From Candidatus Kaiserbacteria bacterium (GTDB lineage: Bacteria > Patescibacteriota > Minisyncoccia > Phycocordibacterales > UBA2100), in the NCBI GenBank assembly GCA_963767115.1, contig CAVYCR010000002.1, positions 1-51,898 of the forward strand: DNA of 51,898 nt. The letters run 5' to 3'. Position 1 is the stretch's first letter; each line of letters begins with the position of its first letter. Below the pieces are notes generated by a model. The model was not told where the DNA came from. It searched no databases and was given only the letters and a program-made list of their open reading frames with translations. Below are positions 6,823-48,686 of this stretch, piece after piece. Both the position numbers and the translations under genes were made by a program.

Positions 6823-7359
6823 ATGTTTTCTCGTTTAACTCTATTTCGCCAACAATTAACAACAATAAATTCATACCGGAATTTATCATTTAAACAAATA
6901 AATGAATTAAAACCGATTCTTAGTCGAAATCTTGCTTGGTTCTCTGGAAAATCAACCAAACAAACTTCGGGTTTGTGAGAATTGTTTTTAAATTTAACTC
7001 CTTAAGAATTTCTTTATATAAAATTGTACATATCTTATGATATGATACATGGAGTTAAAGAACAGAAGGTCATCGAGTGCATTATCGCGAAGATATTGAA
7101 TGAATACGTTAAATTTGTATTGTTTTTAATAGGTGGAAGATTAAAACGACGTTTAGAAATATCATTCTAATTAGTGTCATTGGTTTTGGTACAATCTCTA
7201 TTTATGGTAAATATCGTCGATATCGATGGTTCCATGAGATGGATGATTCTGATAAGACTATTGGTACTAAACCACGTATTATCGTTCTTGGAACAGGTAA
7301 AGAATAGATTAATTATTTATATTTATTTGAATAATATTAAATAGGTTGGGGTGCTGTGC
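6823..7359 (+). CDS. Mitochondrial type II (alternative) NADH dehydrogenase, first three exons, truncated at the junction
   Basis: Arg/Ser/Leu-rich presequence MFSRLTLFRQQ...; GT-AG introns 6971-7132 and 7297-7344. Spliced product reads KPRIIVLGTG-WGAV, the first Rossmann motif of the Nde1/Ndi1 family. One probable 1-nt indel near 7152. Confidence 0.85.
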
Positions 7360-8674
<1,315 letters not shown>

Positions 8675-17208: not shown

Positions 17209-17258
17209 TTGCAGAGGTCAGACCTCTGCAATCTTTTCCACAGAGGTCTGACCTCTGT
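17209..17258. repeat. REP-like palindrome doublet upstream of the RAYT (inverted pair)
   Basis: TTGCAGAGGTC-A-GACCTCTGCAA (17209-17231) and ACAGAGGTC-T-GACCTCTGT (17240-17258). Confidence 0.9.
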
Positions 17259-17293: not shown

Positions 17294-17977
17294 ATGCATC
17301 GGAGGGGTCAGATGCGTGCTCTCGATGGGCACCACTATCATATTTTCAACCGTGGCGCACATGAGTACCCTGTTTTTGCAAGTGACGACGATTATAAAAG
17401 GTTCCAGATTCTTCTATACCTGCTCAACACGCACTCCCCTGTCACGGTACGCAACGTGCTTGCGCGATACCAAGAGACAAAAGTGGAGCGGGTGTTTATA
17501 GACGAGTACTGCGACCAGTCACTTGTCGATATACTCGCCTACACGCTCCTACCCAACCATTTCCATTTGGTCTTGCGCGAAAAGGCTGAGGACGGCGTAG
17601 CTCTTTTCATGCAGAAGGTGTGCACTGCCTATTCTATGTATTTCAATACAATGCATGACCATCGCGGCACACTCTGGGAGGGACGGTATAAGTCGCGGCC
17701 GATCGCGAACGAATCGTATCTCAAATACATCTTTGCTTATGTCCACCTCAATGTACTCGATCTCAAAGAGAATCGACGGAAAGACTTTGGCATAAAAGAT
17801 ACGAGAGCTTCACGCGCATTTGTCGCTTCGTATCCGTATTCGAGCTACTACGACTATTACGTGGGAGGCCGGCCGGAGAGGGTCATCTTGTGCGCAACAA
17901 ATCTGCGCGATTTTCTGCGGCAAAACGATTTTGAGGAACTGGCCGCTTGGCAATCAGCCGGCCGCGCAGAGGTCTGA
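17294..17977 (+). mobile_element. REP-associated tyrosine transposase (RAYT, Y1 HUH family)
   Basis: YHIFNRG, YTLLPNHFHLVL (HUH), YFN...GTLWEGRYKS, YVHLN (catalytic Tyr), YPYSSY; palindromes on both sides; no tnpB. Confidence 0.92.
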
Positions 17978-18016
17978 CCTCTGTACCACACGACTACCGA
18001 GGTCTGACCTCTGCAA
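17966..18016. repeat. REP-like palindrome doublet downstream of the RAYT; supplies its TGA stop
   Basis: GCAGAGGTC-T-GACCTCTGT (17966-17984) and GAGGTC-T-GACCTCTGCAA (17999-18016). Confidence 0.9.
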
Positions 18017-25411: not shown

Positions 25412-25542
25412 GATTATATTTGTATATGTCCTTTACACAGGAGATCTTATGGACGGATTATATAGAGGACGTACATGAGCTGCAATGTCTTTATATGTCT
25501 CTGACACTGACTCCGTGTGGCGTCAATCACAGATCTGTCTTT
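25382..25542. repeat. Array of TGTCYYT-like heptamers over the HTH gene start and the divergent promoter region
   Basis: Copies at 25382, 25393, 25405, 25427, 25486, 25496 and 25536. Confidence 0.65.
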
Positions 25543-25614
25543 TATTGCCACAAGGTGCTTCCGAGGCCCTTTTTAAGCCCTGCTTTGGGAGCTTACGTGG
25601 TATTATTGTCCGGT

Positions 25615-27870
25615 ATGGCAGAGGTAAATAGGAAAAAAAAACGAACGAAGAAAAATACTACTGACGACGCGCCGGCACGAGTGAGCGCTGTCTCAGGCGA
25701 GGCGATGCGCAGTGTCGTAGCGATCTTCCTGATCGCGATTGCTATCTTCCTTTTTGTGGCTGAGCTGGGTGGTGGTGGCAAGATTGGTGCTGATGTGTAT
25801 ACCGGCCTTACCTGGCTTCTTGGCGTGGGGTACACACTCTTGCCGATTTCGCTCGTGATGCTCTCGGTGGTCATATTTCGATACTTTGAAAAGACGCTTG
25901 GCTGGATCCAGAGCGTGAGCATGCTCGTCTTCTTGCTCTCAGCACTCGGCCTCGTAAGCGTCGCCTTCCCAGGGCACGGCGGCATTGTCGGCCAATCAAT
26001 ATCTTCTGCGCTCATCGGCTCGATCGATACAACCGCGACAGTGACCTTCTTGGTCGCCTTCGTCATCGCTTCACTCATCATTGCCTTCGATGTAAATCTC
26101 GCAGCAGTCTTTGGGAAGTTGCGTGCGCTCGTTCGCAATCGCTTCGAGGGTGAAGAAGTACTAGACGAGGAGCCGCAGATCAGAGGCTTGCCCGAAGAAA
26201 CAGAGAGCGAAACCGCGTACGCAACGGAGTCAGATGTGCGTGACGAGGAGCCGACAGAACCTGCTCCAAAAGAAGCCGGTGTGATCACGAAATTCTTTAA
26301 TGGTGGCAACGAAGGCCTCGAAGGCGGCTTCCCTATTGCCGCGACAATCGGGCAGGAATACGTGCCGCCGCCGCTCTCTATCCTTGCCAAAAACAAAGGC
26401 AAGCCCGAGGTCGGCGACGTGAAGGCCAACATGAACATCATCAAGCGCACACTCCAGAACTTCGGCATCACCGTCGAAATGGACGAAGCCTCGATCGGCC
26501 CGACCGTCACGCGCTACGCGATGAAGCCGGCCGAGGGCGTACGGCTCTCAAAGATCGTCGCGCTCCAGAGCAACCTCGAGCTCGCGCTTGCGGTGAGCCC
26601 CGTGCGCATCGAGGCGCCGATCCCGGGCAAATCACTCGTCGGGATCGAAGTGCCGAACATCGCGCGCACCACGCTCGGCCTGGCGCCGCTCCTCTCTGAC
26701 GAAGGATTCACCGATTCCGACAAGCCGCTCTTGGTCGCCCTCGGCCGCTCCATCACCGGCGCGCCGCATTCGCCGACATCGCGACGATGCCGCACATGCT
26801 CGTCGCCGGCGCGACCGGCGCGGGCAAATCTGTCACGATCCATGACTTCATCGTTTCGCTTCTCTATCGCTGCGGGCCCGAGAACGCTGCGCTTCATCAT
26901 GGTCGACCCGAAGCGCGTCGAGCTCACGCTTTATAACTCGATTCCGCATCTTCTCACACCGGTCATCACCGACGCCGAAGAAGGCGATCCTCGCCCTCAA
27001 ATGGCTCGCCAAAGAAATGGATCGCCGCTACAACATCCTCGAGGCCGAAAAAGTGCGCGACATCTCTTCCTATCACGAAAACGTCGTCAAGCCGGCACTC
27101 GAAAAGGCAGCAAAGAATAACGGTAGCGAAGGAGAACAGATGCCGGAAGCGATGCCCTACATCGTCGTCATCATCGACGAGCTCGCCGACATCATGCAGG
27201 CCTACCCGCGCGAGCTCGAGAGCGGCATCGTGCGCCTGGCACAGATGAGCCGTGCCGTCGGCATCCACCTTATCCTTCGACACAGCGCCCGTCGGTGAAG
27301 GTCATTACCGGCCTCATCAAGGCCAACATGCCGGCCCGCCTCGCGCTCCAAGTCGCCTCGCAGATCGACTCGCGCACCATCCTCGACATGGGTGGCGCCG
27401 AGAAGCTCTTGGGTGCTGGCGACATGCTCTTCCTTTCAGGCGAAATGTCAAAACCGAACCGCATCCAGGCACCGTATATATCGGAAGCCGAGGTAAAGAA
27501 AATCGTTGCCTATCTTGCCAAACAATCCGAAGGAACACTCCCGAGCGAGATCGACCTGAGTGAAGGCAAGGGTGCGACCGGCGGCGGCATGGACCCTATT
27601 TTCTCATCAATGATAGGAGATGATGAAGAAGAGGATGAGCTGTATGCCGAGGCTAAACGCACGGTGATAGAAGCCGGTAAGGCGTCGACCTCGTACCTCC
27701 AGCGGAAGCTCGGCATCGGCTATGCGCGCGCAGCCAAGCTCATCGACATACTCGAGGAGCACGGCGTGGTGGGACCTGCCGACGGCGCCAAGCCGCGCGA
27801 CGTGATCGGCGGCGGCCAAGCCGACGAACTCGTAAAGGCGGCTGAAGCCTCTGGGGACGAACCGTTATGA
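25615..27870 (+). CDS. ftsK: DNA translocase FtsK/SpoIIIE, about four 1-nt frameshifts
   Basis: 4-TM N-terminus, [16 protein letters not shown], Walker [10 protein letters not shown] (shifted frame), [21 protein letters not shown], gamma domain [18 protein letters not shown]. Confidence 0.95.
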
Positions 27871-27873
27871 TGA

Positions 27874-27993
27874 GGCACGAAACGGTGGCGCAGGTATTTT
27901 GCCGTCTACACAGGCGCGGCGGCGCCGAGTCTGAGCGCTGGGCGAGCACGCCCAGACAGCGACGGCAAAATACCTGCGCCACCGTTTCGTGCC
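27874..27993 (+). ncRNA. 120-nt structured element, copy 1 (candidate ncRNA or MITE)
   Basis: Perfect 33-bp inverted repeat (27874-27906 / 27961-27993); loop holds CGGCGGCGC and CTGGGCG-AGCA-CGCCCAG. Confidence 0.65.
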
Positions 27994-45892: not shown

Positions 45893-47569
45893 TTATTCGG
45901 CAAGATTCTTTTTCTTATTCCTATTCGCAAACCAATCATCCTCGATGAGCCCGAGGTGCGCGAGACGGGCGTGGATCGCGCTCGGCTTGCGACCGAAATG
46001 TTTGGCGATTTCACCCTGCTTCACATCTTGCGTAAACATCGCTTTCAGCGTGTCATCGTCTTCCTGTTTCCAAGGCTTGCCCATGTTGGGATACTTCTCG
46101 CGCAAAGCAGCACGCGGGTCGGCCGCACCGGATTCCGGCGCAGAGGGTGACCGAGCAATGTCTGAGCGGAGCGAGTTGCGGAGGTCGCCCGGCGCGCCGG
46201 AGTCCGGTGCGACCGACTTCGGCTCTTTCGCACCGATAGCCCGCAAGAAATTCTTCTCCATCTTTTCTTTGTCATCGCTCGCAAGCGTCGCGAACTTCTT
46301 GCGCGCAGCGTCCGAGTACGCGCGGAAGTAACGGTCTTGCGCGACGACACCCGGATGCATCTCAAGCGCACGCTCGTTGAAGCCGACCAGATGCAAGCCC
46401 GCGAGCGAGCGCACGCGCGAGATCGCCACGTACCCTTGGCCGTATTCGAAGGCACTTGCGAGGTCGACGAGCGCGCTCTCCAGGCTCATGCCCTGGCTCT
46501 TGTGCACGGTGATCGCCCACGCGAGACGCAGCGGCACTTGGCTCAGGCGCGCAAGGATCCTGTTGCCGTCTTGGATCGCCCACTCGACCGGCTCCACGTT
46601 GAGCGTCAGGCCCTGCCTCGTGCGCACGATCGGGGTGCCGAGCGGCGTGAAGCCGACGACCTCCGCGAGCGTGCCATTCACATATCCTGCTTCAAAGTTG
46701 TTGCGCGTGAACATCACCATCGCGCCTTCCTTGAGGACCAGCGTCTCGGGTGAAAGGCAATTCTTCTTGAGAGTCTCGACGAGTGAGGCCGCGCCGCGCG
46801 AGGTCATCTGGAAGACATGTGAGCTGCCGTCGATTTTCTGCAGAGCATCGTTGTTGATGCGATCGACATCGGCATTGTGCGTATAGAGCCTCGTGGCTCC
46901 ACTTGCCGTAGTCGCATTCATTCTTCCTCGCAATTGCTCACGGTGTGCCTGGGTGACCGCTCCGCTTCGCATCGCACCAAGCAATGCAAGAAATTCGCCG
47001 TCATCCTGGCGATGCTGTTCGTTGAGGTAACAAATGACGGGGTTAGCATCCTTCCACGCCGAGGATTCAAAGGCGAATTTAGGCCTTTCTTCCCGACCAC
47101 CTTCGCTTTCGCTTCGACGTGTCACGGGTGGCAACTGGAAAAAGTCTCCGACGAAGATCACCTGCAATCCGCCAAAGGGTTCTTCGGGCATCAGGGGCCG
47201 GCGACGCAGTGTGCGCAAGACGCGGTCGACGCTCTCGAGCGTCGTCGCGTCAAGCATCGAGATCTCGTCGATGATCAGGACTTTGGCATCGATGATGCGC
47301 CGCGCCGTCTTTTCCTTGCTCTGGATGTATTCGATGTCGTAATCATTTACGTACCGCTTCACGCCTATACCGCTCCACGAGTGAATCGTCATGCCGTCGA
47401 TATGTGTGGCGGCGATGCCGGTCGAAGCGGTGACCGCCGCATCGACGCCGCGCTCCTGGAGCCACCGCACGTGCGCATTGATCGTGTGCGTCTTGCCGCT
47501 CCCCGGCTCGCCGGTGAGAAATACGTTGAGGCCCGTCTTCAAAATGGCCAATGCTTCAGTCTGTGTCAT
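45893..47569 (-). CDS. PIF1-like SF1B helicase with C-terminal HTH
   Basis: GEPGSGKT, DEISM, GDFFQLPPV, AWAITVHKSQG, YVAISR; tail PW...EIAKHFGRKPSAIHARL. Confidence 0.93.
   Translation of the reverse strand: MTQTEALAILKTGLNVFLTGEPGSGKTHTINAHVRWLQERGVDAAVTASTGIAATHIDGMTIHSWSGIGVKRYVNDYDIEYIQSKEKTARRIIDAKVLIIDEISMLDATTLESVDRVLRTLRRRPLMPEEPFGGLQVIFVGDFFQLPPVTRRSESEGGREERPKFAFESSAWKDANPVICYLNEQHRQDDGEFLALLGAMRSGAVTQAHREQLRGRMNATTASGATRLYTHNADVDRINNDALQKIDGSSHVFQMTSRGAASLVETLKKNCLSPETLVLKEGAMVMFTRNNFEAGYVNGTLAEVVGFTPLGTPIVRTRQGLTLNVEPVEWAIQDGNRILARLSQVPLRLAWAITVHKSQGMSLESALVDLASAFEYGQGYVAISRVRSLAGLHLVGFNERALEMHPGVVAQDRYFRAYSDAARKKFATLASDDKEKMEKNFLRAIGAKEPKSVAPDSGAPGDLRNSLRSDIARSPSAPESGAADPRAALREKYPNMGKPWKQEDDDTLKAMFTQDVKQGEIAKHFGRKPSAIHARLAHLGLIEDDWFANRNKKKNLAE
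46118..46217. repeat. 100-nt palindromic element read in frame within the helicase
   Basis: 24-nt arms gtcggccgcaccggattccggcgc / gcgccggagtccggtgcgaccgac (2 mismatches); inner gggtgacc/ggtcgccc and gcaa/ttgc; GAGCGGAGCGA in the loop. Confidence 0.8.
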
Positions 47570-47601: not shown

Positions 47602-47719
47602 CGCATCAACCTTGCGGGAATTGCATTTTGGGGTCGTTCTTTTCTTGCTAGAAAAGAACTCTGTTTCGCGCCGCCGGGCTGCAAAGACCCCAAAATGCAA
47701 TTCCGGCAGAGTTGATGCG
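47602..47719 (-). ncRNA. 118-nt structured element, copy 2 (same architecture as 27874-27993)
   Basis: 34-nt arms with 3 mismatches; minus-strand loop holds CGGCGGCGC and GTTCTTTTCT-AGCA-AGAAAAGAAC. Confidence 0.65.
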
Positions 47720-47720
47720 G

Positions 47721-48686
47721 TTACAGATGACACACAGAATCAAGCTCCGCGACATCCGCTGCAGTAGGGTTCTCGGTCGTGCCGTCGTTGAGTGCGTTCA
47801 TGATGGCTTGCGGATCGGAGACGTGTTCCATCCCGAGGCTGTGGCCAAACTCGTGTGCGATCACGCGATGCAGGCGCACGGTTGAATCATATTCATAGAT
47901 GTTGATCGACTCTTCCCCGAAGCTGCTTTCGAATACTCCTTCTTCAAATTCGCTGCCGGTCGTGGCTCCGATCGCGTCGTACTTTTCGACGTTGAGGTTG
48001 AGCGCGCCGATGAGCTGGTTGATCTCGTCTGCAAGAGAGTTGAGTGAATCGACCTCCGTGTTGAGCGAAGTTTGCTGAGCCTCGAGCTGCGAAGATTGCG
48101 TCTGCAAGGCGGCCTTCTGTGATTGCAGCTGATCGTAGGTGCTGCTCGGCGCGCCTCCGCGCGCGTTCCATTGCTGCACCTCTTGGTTGTATTCGTCCTG
48201 CTGATTCTGAAAGCTCGCATATGCGCTGTCGAAAGCCGACTTATCCGAGAGATACTGCGTCTGCTGCGCTGCGTACTCCTCTTTGAGGTCGTTGTACTGC
48301 GCCATGCCGCTATCGACAGAGCTATCGATCGAGCTCATTTCATCTTCGGCGTTTTGGCGATAGTCGTAGACGAAATTCACCACGACGACGCCGTGGCTTG
48401 GATCGTAAGCGAGCACCGTCTTGCCTGCCGCCGTGTTCCATTTGCCAGCCGCGTTTTGTAGGAGCGTGAGCACCTGTGCTTGCGAGAGACCGAAGCGTGG
48501 GTCGATCGTCCCGATGCGGTAGGTCACCGGCGCGTCGCACGGGAAGAAGCGCTGATACGCCTGCGAGAGCACCACACGCGTCTGCTGCGGAAATATGAAA
48601 AAGACGAAGCAAAGTATCGCCACTATGACGACAAGCTCAAGCAGGCTGCGCTGCCACGCGCTTTTAGTATGCGGCACTATCTCCAT
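47721..48686 (-). CDS. Matrixin-type (metzincin) metalloprotease with inserted coiled coil, membrane-anchored
   Basis: HEFGHSLGMEH plus Met-turn AIMN; Gln-rich heptad region. Confidence 0.9.
   Translation of the reverse strand: MEIVPHTKSAWQRSLLELVVIVAILCFVFFIFPQQTRVVLSQAYQRFFPCDAPVTYRIGTIDPRFGLSQAQVLTLLQNAAGKWNTAAGKTVLAYDPSHGVVVVNFVYDYRQNAEDEMSSIDSSVDSGMAQYNDLKEEYAAQQTQYLSDKSAFDSAYASFQNQQDEYNQEVQQWNARGGAPSSTYDQLQSQKAALQTQSSQLEAQQTSLNTEVDSLNSLADEINQLIGALNLNVEKYDAIGATTGSEFEEGVFESSFGEESINIYEYDSTVRLHRVIAHEFGHSLGMEHVSDPQAIMNALNDGTTENPTAADVAELDSVCHL

Follow-up and report, generated by a model that had tools for sequence, protein, structure and literature searches.

The closest described systems to the hairpin family reported here are MITEs derived from IS1595-type insertion sequences, for example the ISHwa6-related MITEs of Haloquadratum walsbyi. 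As presented in PMC3852290 (Table 4), such elements are, like the members of our family, small and gene-less, have long IS1595-like inverted ends, carry 8-bp duplications in young copies and occur in many dispersed intergenic copies; one IS1595-derived MITE in an archaeon is given there with a 25-bp inverted repeat and an 8-bp direct repeat. On the other hand, the core of our family is not derived from the interior of the insertion sequence (IS) that we found in the same genome, and the pattern is the reverse of that of a usual MITE: in the genome studied here the ends have lost their sequence but kept their complementarity, whereas the middle is conserved.

Correia elements (CREE/NEMIS) of Neisseria likewise consist of an inverted repeat around a conserved core, measure approximately 100-150 nt and lie next to genes, and RNase III can bind or cleave their hairpin once it is transcribed, a role which is putative here. 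However, as PMC2649163 describes them, their ends are conserved between copies, unlike the ends of our family in the genome studied. REPINs, which are mobilised by RAYT, likewise have a long predicted hairpin (as ssDNA or mRNA), compensatory changes on both sides and proliferation within a genome, but in the account of PMC3116915 their conserved parts are the two REP ends and their variable part is the spacer, which is the opposite of the arrangement here, where the element ends are variable. According to the same account they make no target duplication, and the RAYT gene is flanked by the same REPs, which was not seen here. The bcr1 element of the Bacillus cereus group (approximately 155 bp, transcribed) likewise has short direct-repeat flanks and compensatory changes that keep a double-stranded structure; it differs in its 5-bp direct repeats, its lineage and its sequence, and the account in PMC3184786 describes for it no three-way-junction core with copy-specific arms. 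Our literature search turned up no publication dealing with MITEs in the candidate phyla radiation.

The DNA analyzed here is a stretch of 51,898 nt (hereafter the window) from a Kaiserbacteria-like genome of 1.03 Mb in 12 contigs (G000). It contains two foldback elements, copy 1 and copy 2 (table 1). Copy 2 begins, in the minus-strand reading, 1 nt after the TAA stop (47721-47723) of a gene for a matrixin-like metalloprotease, exactly as an earlier reading of this DNA from the sequence alone (the sequence-only reading) had stated, and the gene for a PIF1-like helicase begins 32 nt past its hairpin. The predicted fold of copy 2 reaches -74.1 kcal/mol, compared with -31.5 +/- 3.3 in 200 shuffled sequences (z = -12.7), none of which was as good, and the covariance model of the family matches it at 47622-47699 with 98.8 bits. 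By inverted-repeat scan its arms measure 37 nt with 89% complementarity. The outer ~23 nt of the 5' arm are specific to this copy and the inner ~11 nt (ATTTTGGGGTC) are common to the family; the two arms pair with each other but do not resemble those of other copies (approximately 30% identity). An 8-bp target duplication was looked for at copy 2 and a target duplication at copy 1, and neither was found; comparison of the copy 2 arms with IS ends gave no recognisable similarity.

Table 1. Coordinates of the two hairpin copies in the window, their parts and neighboring genes, and of related loci outside the window
Feature	Position	Strand	Remark
Copy 2, whole 118-nt foldback element, B-type core	47602..47719	-	Sequence, fold, covariance-model match
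Copy 2, 5' arm	47686..47719 (reads 47719..47686)	-	34 nt
Copy 2, core	47636..47685	-	50 nt: junction, hairpin 1, linker, hairpin 2
Copy 2, hairpin 1	47668-47679	-	Small, G+C-rich
Copy 2, linker	47660-47667	-	GAAACAGA
Copy 2, hairpin 2	47636-47659	-	10 bp, A+T-rich, AGCA loop
Copy 2, 3' arm	47602..47635 (reads 47635..47602)	-	34 nt
Gene upstream of copy 2: matrixin-like metalloprotease	47721..48686	-	Peptidase_M10, E 2.9e-9
Gene downstream of copy 2: PIF1-like helicase	45893..47569	-	E 2.8e-35
Copy 1, 120-nt foldback element, A-type core	27874..27993	+	Inverted-repeat scan, sequence
Copy 1, arms	27874-27906 and 27961-27993	+	33 nt, 100% complementary, 54 nt between
Copy 1, hairpin 1	27913-27926	+	
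Copy 1, hairpin 2	27938-27955	+	
Gene upstream of copy 1: C-terminal part of ftsK	27295..27870	+	FtsK_gamma, E 8.8e-28
B-type copies with 17-nt insertion	C3 218665-218801, C5 12037-12158, C7 70853-70978		Contigs of G000
Further hairpin families, examples	C1 158199-158363, C11 6076-6202, C3 41612-41689, C1 91393-91676, C5 105844-105935		Contigs of G000
DnaA-box-like 9-mer loci	G105 L176-L184, L200-L208; own IS copies L209, L211		

The ftsK stop lies 3 nt ahead of the copy 1 hairpin. The ftsK gene itself is present as two ORFs in different frames (window 25420-27120 and 27295-27870, plus strand), the first with the alpha domain and part of the motor and the second with the gamma domain, most of the FtsK_SpoIIIE motor being unmatched; the gene could be split or frameshifted, or the assembly could be in error.

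Both copies were considered as intrinsic terminators, which was ruled out because no U-run follows directly after either hairpin: the next letters are AAACTCC after copy 2 and GGACACT after copy 1. Ordinary terminators of this genome have the form A-run, stem, T-run. A search of Rfam 15 including the small ribozymes, at gathering and permissive thresholds, matched the element to no family; around both copies it returned chance-level matches alone, mostly microRNA precursors below 22 bits. A hammerhead-like reading of GUC...GAAAC was dropped, Rfam ribozyme support being absent. The sole gathering-level Rfam match in the window was to 23S rRNA (window 7256-8640, minus strand). Only 1385 nt long, the match spans model positions 15-2044 and contains inserted stretches, so that this 23S rRNA gene seems to be interrupted or rearranged.

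The sequence-only reading had regarded copy 2 as direct covariation evidence for a family, pointing to an inner stem GCATTTTGGGGTC/GACCCCAAAATGC in place of GTATTTTGCCGTC/GACGGCAAAATAC in copy 1, to an AGCA loop kept on two unrelated stems and to the retention of CGGCGGCGC. All of the quoted stem strings are present, and the AGCA loop is indeed shared by the unrelated stems of copies 1 and 2. CGGCGGCGC is present too, at 47668-47676 and 27917-27925, but it is not a free motif: it corresponds to the loop and 3' strand of hairpin 1, where copy 2 has a C-C mismatch compared with the family form. Four matches to it occur in the window versus 0.91 expected, and 1 of 100 shuffles reached four, so CGGCGGCGC alone is weak evidence for the family. 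Pairing is kept in all three of the base pairs described as swapped; however, one of them (C-G to T-A) is located in the copy-specific part of the arm and is therefore not a homologous covarying position. The GG/CC to CC/GG swap is a polymorphism of the family which is seen with both core types, and mixed core and inner-stem forms were found in 3 of 28 parsed copies. Thus, the observation made on copy 2 is confirmed as a whole, and its interpretation is partly supported.

A blastn search detected approximately 29 copies of the family in G000, with two types of core (A, like that of copy 1, and B, like that of copy 2), each of which occurs with both types of inner stem. Whole hairpins in this genome measure 100-137 nt, and 14 of the 29 copies start -1 to +9 nt past the stop of a long co-directional ORF. 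The covariance-model search that the sequence-only reading had proposed was carried out with a model built from 13 B-type copies and five relatives, and it bore out the family: at E <= 0.001, 93 of the 116 genus genomes gave a match (0-19 matches per genome). A plain DNA search matched 5 of 24 other genomes of the genus and, in other families of the order, none of 16 genomes.

Copies in G000 with identical 50-nt cores carry different arms. No second copy of the arms was detected in the own genome or in two further genomes (G012 and G023), searches for phage matches to the arms gave only one 21-nt chance match, and the core pattern was not matched in viral contigs; these searches gave no support to a spacer-like origin of the arms. 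Insertion of the core into pre-existing long terminator hairpins was also rejected, as G000 lacks a class of long, unique hairpins with small loops; its ordinary hairpins are terminators of 12-17 bp with A-run and T-run, or other repeats.

Three B-type copies with differing arms have in common a 17-nt insertion in hairpin 2. The insertion replaces the 5' strand of this hairpin, which consequently cannot form; either hairpin 2 is dispensable for spread or the variant was spread by conversion.

At least five further hairpin families, with cores of ~105, 54-60, 20, 71 and 30 nt, were observed in G000. In all of them the arms, of 25-36 bp, pair almost perfectly and differ from copy to copy, and the 5' arm carries a T-run close to its inner end; some members occur as adjacent pairs. 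The recurrence of this design in at least five other core families favors a general DNA mechanism over separate functions.

To examine pairing, we compared 33 copies from 29 other genomes. In the alignment fitted to the covariance model, 93.3% of the cells pair, compared with 72.7% in shuffles, and 25 of the 28 pairs changed on both sides; controls with slid pairing gave 42-59%. All four pairs of hairpin 1 covary (100% paired), as do 8 of 10 pairs of hairpin 2 (98.5% paired). A MAFFT alignment, which was not fitted to the model, gave 93.0% versus 77.2% pairing and two-sided changes in 18 of 28 pairs. The loops and junction letters are nearly invariant across these 29 genomes and it is the stems that covary; the loop of hairpin 1 is GGCG, GACG or GTCG across the family. 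The covariation is real, and the existence of a family whose pairing has been kept through two-sided changes, which had been proposed from copies 1 and 2, is supported.

Within G000, 870 of 900 arm pairs are Watson-Crick (~97%), and the median unbroken run is 32 bp. The 30 mismatches comprise 6 G-T, 9 A-C and 15 others; G-T is thus no commoner than A-C or other mismatches, which is not what selection for RNA pairing predicts. Compensated hairpins have been reported for the bcr1 MITE (in the account of PMC3184786) and for REPINs (in that of PMC3116915), and template-switch mutation in quasipalindromes is presented in PMC7202029 as an established mechanism in Escherichia coli. Pairing upheld at the DNA level is a simpler reading than RNA function: the matched base changes are real but are no proof of the latter.

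An orientation bias relative to the upstream gene had been put forward in the sequence-only reading as a test of the family, and it gave opposite answers. Between co-directional genes of G000, 16 cores are in sense and 5 in antisense orientation, whereas elsewhere 5 are sense and 22 antisense (4:12 among the best matches of the 29 genomes, and 0:5 and 1:5 in the sister genomes G105 and G043); for all of these counts the genes were called crudely, by longest ORF. The hairpin base adjoins the stop codon whatever the orientation of the core, as judged by eye in one case (genome G005). Inversion of the core in situ between its own arms is one idea that might account for the opposite biases.

The location of some copies is also informative. 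In at least nine genomes, a copy is found between the divergent rpmH and dnaA genes, next to DnaA boxes and with different arms in each genome. At this site, two close relatives (DnaA 97% identical) have different core types and unrelated arms; their flanks are mostly conserved, and the arms are not copies of the flanks. Considering the reversed orientation, the sites between divergent genes and the lack of a G-T excess, a shared RNA function on the sense strand is unlikely. These points, together with the MITE hallmarks described below, leave the reading of the covariation as evidence of a structured RNA unsupported.

DnaA-box-like 9-mers (TTATCCACA or its complement) were observed at or beside many young MITE insertions and two IS copies (table 1), which may reflect a target preference or an effect of oriC. 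GTAG occurs in 26 of 154 flanks against a background of 4%; a GTAG target like that of REPs was dropped, this excess being confounded by TAG stop codons.

The hallmarks of a MITE are most evident in the sister genomes. G105 has 11 copies with the same core and the same long arms, and a young element there is ~120 nt long (counted by hand). All 12 examined matches in this genome are flanked by an 8-mer direct repeat with at most one mismatch, and in 11 of these the offset is constant; when pairings were shuffled, the count averaged 2.08 and never exceeded 5. In G043, 7 of 14 matches have such a repeat versus 1.68 expected, and four of the seven repeats are exact and at the expected offset. For G000 the figure is 6 of 62 long hairpins, compared with 2.8 +/- 1.7 by chance. 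The target duplication of a Correia element is the dinucleotide TA.

The outer ends of the G105 elements align with the 35-nt inverted repeats of an IS located on contig C5 of the own genome, and seven columns are invariant across the ten ends compared. This IS measures 1701 bp from end to end, its inverted repeats are 83% complementary, an 8-bp direct repeat (CAAAAAGA) borders it at either end, and it matches PF12762 (DDE_Tnp_IS1595), a domain with three matches in G000 (E 3.7e-46 to 1.5e-31). Its transposase ORF has only 222 amino acids, so this IS copy may be damaged. In G105 and G043, which contain the youngest copies, PF12762 gave no match. Nine solo ends examined in G105 have no adjacent transposase and only housekeeping genes beside them, and eleven further weak end-matches are single relics. 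The mobilising enzyme is accordingly a putative one, proposed from the similarity of the ends. IS4/IS5-type transposases (PF01609) were not matched in G000, G105 or G043, and IS256-type (PF00872) is represented by one fragment in G000.

The shared inverted ends, the 8-bp duplications and the presence of an IS1595-type IS with matching ends thus lead us to classify the family, on sequence grounds, as a MITE of an IS1595-type element. Its size is in line with this: 118 nt, no transposase gene and many dispersed copies. In the sister genomes it moves as one piece of ~120 nt, inverted ends included.

The three genomes form an age series. Identity between copies in G105 is 81% for the outer arms and 99% for the core, with an 8-bp repeat at 12 of 12; the values are 43-55%, 93% and 7 of 14 in G043, and 27-33%, 87-89% and 6 of 62 (2.8 by chance) in G000. 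For B-type copies of G000 the outer arms are 32-33% identical, and ~30% is the chance level. The young G105 arms are imperfect and have an internal block of mismatches. Arms in G043 have visibly diverged from those in G105, both sides having changed together, and three hairpins of G000 retain GCGTATCC at their ends, as in G105; TATC[CT] at an end was found in only 4 of 62 long G000 hairpins, compared with a background of 4.8%. Considering the equal length of old and young elements, the diverged G043 arms and the retained GCGTATCC, we read the arms as decayed ends rather than as added flank.

Because neutral decay cannot leave the core intact while randomising the arms, a further process is needed, be it selection, conversion or transfer. 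Over 62 compared positions, one copy of G000 (contig C8) departs from the G105 form at five, which, when read by eye, all fall in the inner stem and the loop of hairpin 1; the two genomes are distant (their DnaA proteins are 75-79% identical to that of a third genome). In addition, the arms of one G043 copy (L198) do not resemble the IS ends although its 8-bp duplication is exact, suggesting that arm turnover may be faster than slow decay or independent of it. Gene conversion, with which the four pairings of core and inner stem and the 17-nt insertion common to three copies agree, could explain the contrast between arms and core, the difference in core type at the dnaA site and L198; transfer between species or selection on the core could do so too.

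An empty site for copy 2 was sought through its neighboring genes, and none was recovered. Relatives of the PIF1-helicase gene within the genus are at most 73% identical and do not have the protease as a neighbor, 11 of 16 relatives lack a long hairpin upstream of the helicase ortholog, and a metagenome scan with the protease gave only relatives of 36-43% identity. The relatives lacking the hairpin here, like the differing copies at the dnaA site, point to turnover of the family. In one relative (L038, G070:C29), the 148-nt spacer upstream of the helicase ortholog consists of short hairpins in series, whose stems differ from module to module and whose loops read CCA or CCAA.

Taken together, copy 2 is probably an old copy of an IS1595-type MITE whose hairpin has been kept paired as DNA. 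The copies of G000 would have inserted long ago into the short gaps after stops and before promoters, the only permissive sites of a compact genome, and their target duplications and end sequences would have decayed since. Meanwhile, the two arms of each copy would have been kept, or made, almost perfectly complementary. A likely route is template switching during replication within the hairpin (quasipalindrome correction), by which a change in one arm would be copied to the other; the same process would also give one-step "compensatory" changes in the two small hairpins. The likeness of the core between copies may be due to gene conversion among copies, to selection on the core, or to both. 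In a transcript running on from the protease gene, the arms would pair into ~30 bp of double-stranded RNA, which RNase III may cut or bind by analogy with the Correia elements of Neisseria. An effect of copy 2 on the protease mRNA is putative but possible.

The conserved loops and junction letters fit a function, which the MITE reading leaves open, and it is conceivable, although we consider it unlikely, that the relic has been turned into a part of the host. The three-way-junction core would then serve for recognition, by a protein or in RNA processing, and be under purifying selection throughout the genus, and the ~60 hairpins of a 1-Mb genome would serve as gene punctuation. The arms would drift but stay paired; within the mRNA they would offer a site to RNase III, stabilise or protect the 3' end, or punctuate the operon, and their perfection would come from template switching in the hairpin, that is, from a DNA process which mimics RNA covariation; these details share the low probability of the reading to which they belong. 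Nearly invariant loops and junction letters with covarying stems in 29 genomes agree with this, as do cores that are 87-89% identical despite arms at chance level and lost duplications, the 14 of 29 own copies at -1 to +9 nt past a co-directional stop, and the 16 to 5 excess of sense copies in G000. Correia elements, as reported in PMC2649163, bind RNase III and alter the expression of neighboring genes. However, the orientation is reversed elsewhere (5 sense to 22 antisense), the gap between the divergent rpmH and dnaA genes which harbors some copies looks untranscribed, the arms show no G-U excess, and no Rfam family matches. Moreover, selection on each of the other five or more core families of the same design is hard to credit.

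A second alternative, improbable in our view, is that the arms were made anew at each insertion, a short mobile core having arrived first and one flank having then been duplicated by fold-back or template-switch copying. It would account for arms that are unique and absent elsewhere in the genome, for identical 50-nt cores with different arms, for hairpin bases adjoining stop codons, for the absence of target duplications in the own genome and for the G043 copy that combines an intact duplication with unrelated arms. Yet, at 100-137 nt, the hairpins of G000 match in length the young ~120-nt G105 element that bears TIRs, so that nothing seems to have been added, and the arms in G043 are recognisably diverged G105 arms with compensated changes. 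The three own copies which keep GCGTATCC at their ends and the dnaA-site arms of two close relatives, which were not copied from the conserved flanks, also speak against it.

Young copies carry 8-bp duplications, which Y1 transposition is not known to make. For this reason, and because the element ends match a DDE-type IS and the examined Y1 genes are flanked by different palindromes of their own (e.g., window 17212-17257 and 17966-18014), we regard as very improbable a REPIN- or PATE-like element moved as ssDNA by a Y1 (IS200/RAYT-type) transposase recognising the two small hairpins, even though PF01797 has ten matches in G000, of which eight exceed the curated cut-off, and despite the absence of duplications there and the compensated hairpins known from REPINs in the account of PMC3116915.

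The Y1 transposase match in the window (17459-17746; PF01797, E 3e-10) lies between the paired palindromes just mentioned, which have the form CAGAGGTC(A/T)GACCTCTG. Several of the ten PF01797 matches have flanking palindromes of their own (C8 15062-15110, C3 183455-184306, C12 46143-46377), and it seems that several REP/RAYT-like systems coexist in this 1-Mb genome.

Reading copy 2 as an old IS1595-type MITE copy provides a concrete origin for hairpins with a conserved core and copy-specific perfect arms in this lineage, namely an IS1595-type transposon with 8-bp duplications. It also calls for caution in hunting for RNA motifs: self-correcting inverted-repeat DNA can yield strong covariation, and covariation alone is no proof of RNA. 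Should the core prove to be under selection, the smallest bacterial genomes would offer a case in which mobile DNA has been put to new use as punctuation between genes.
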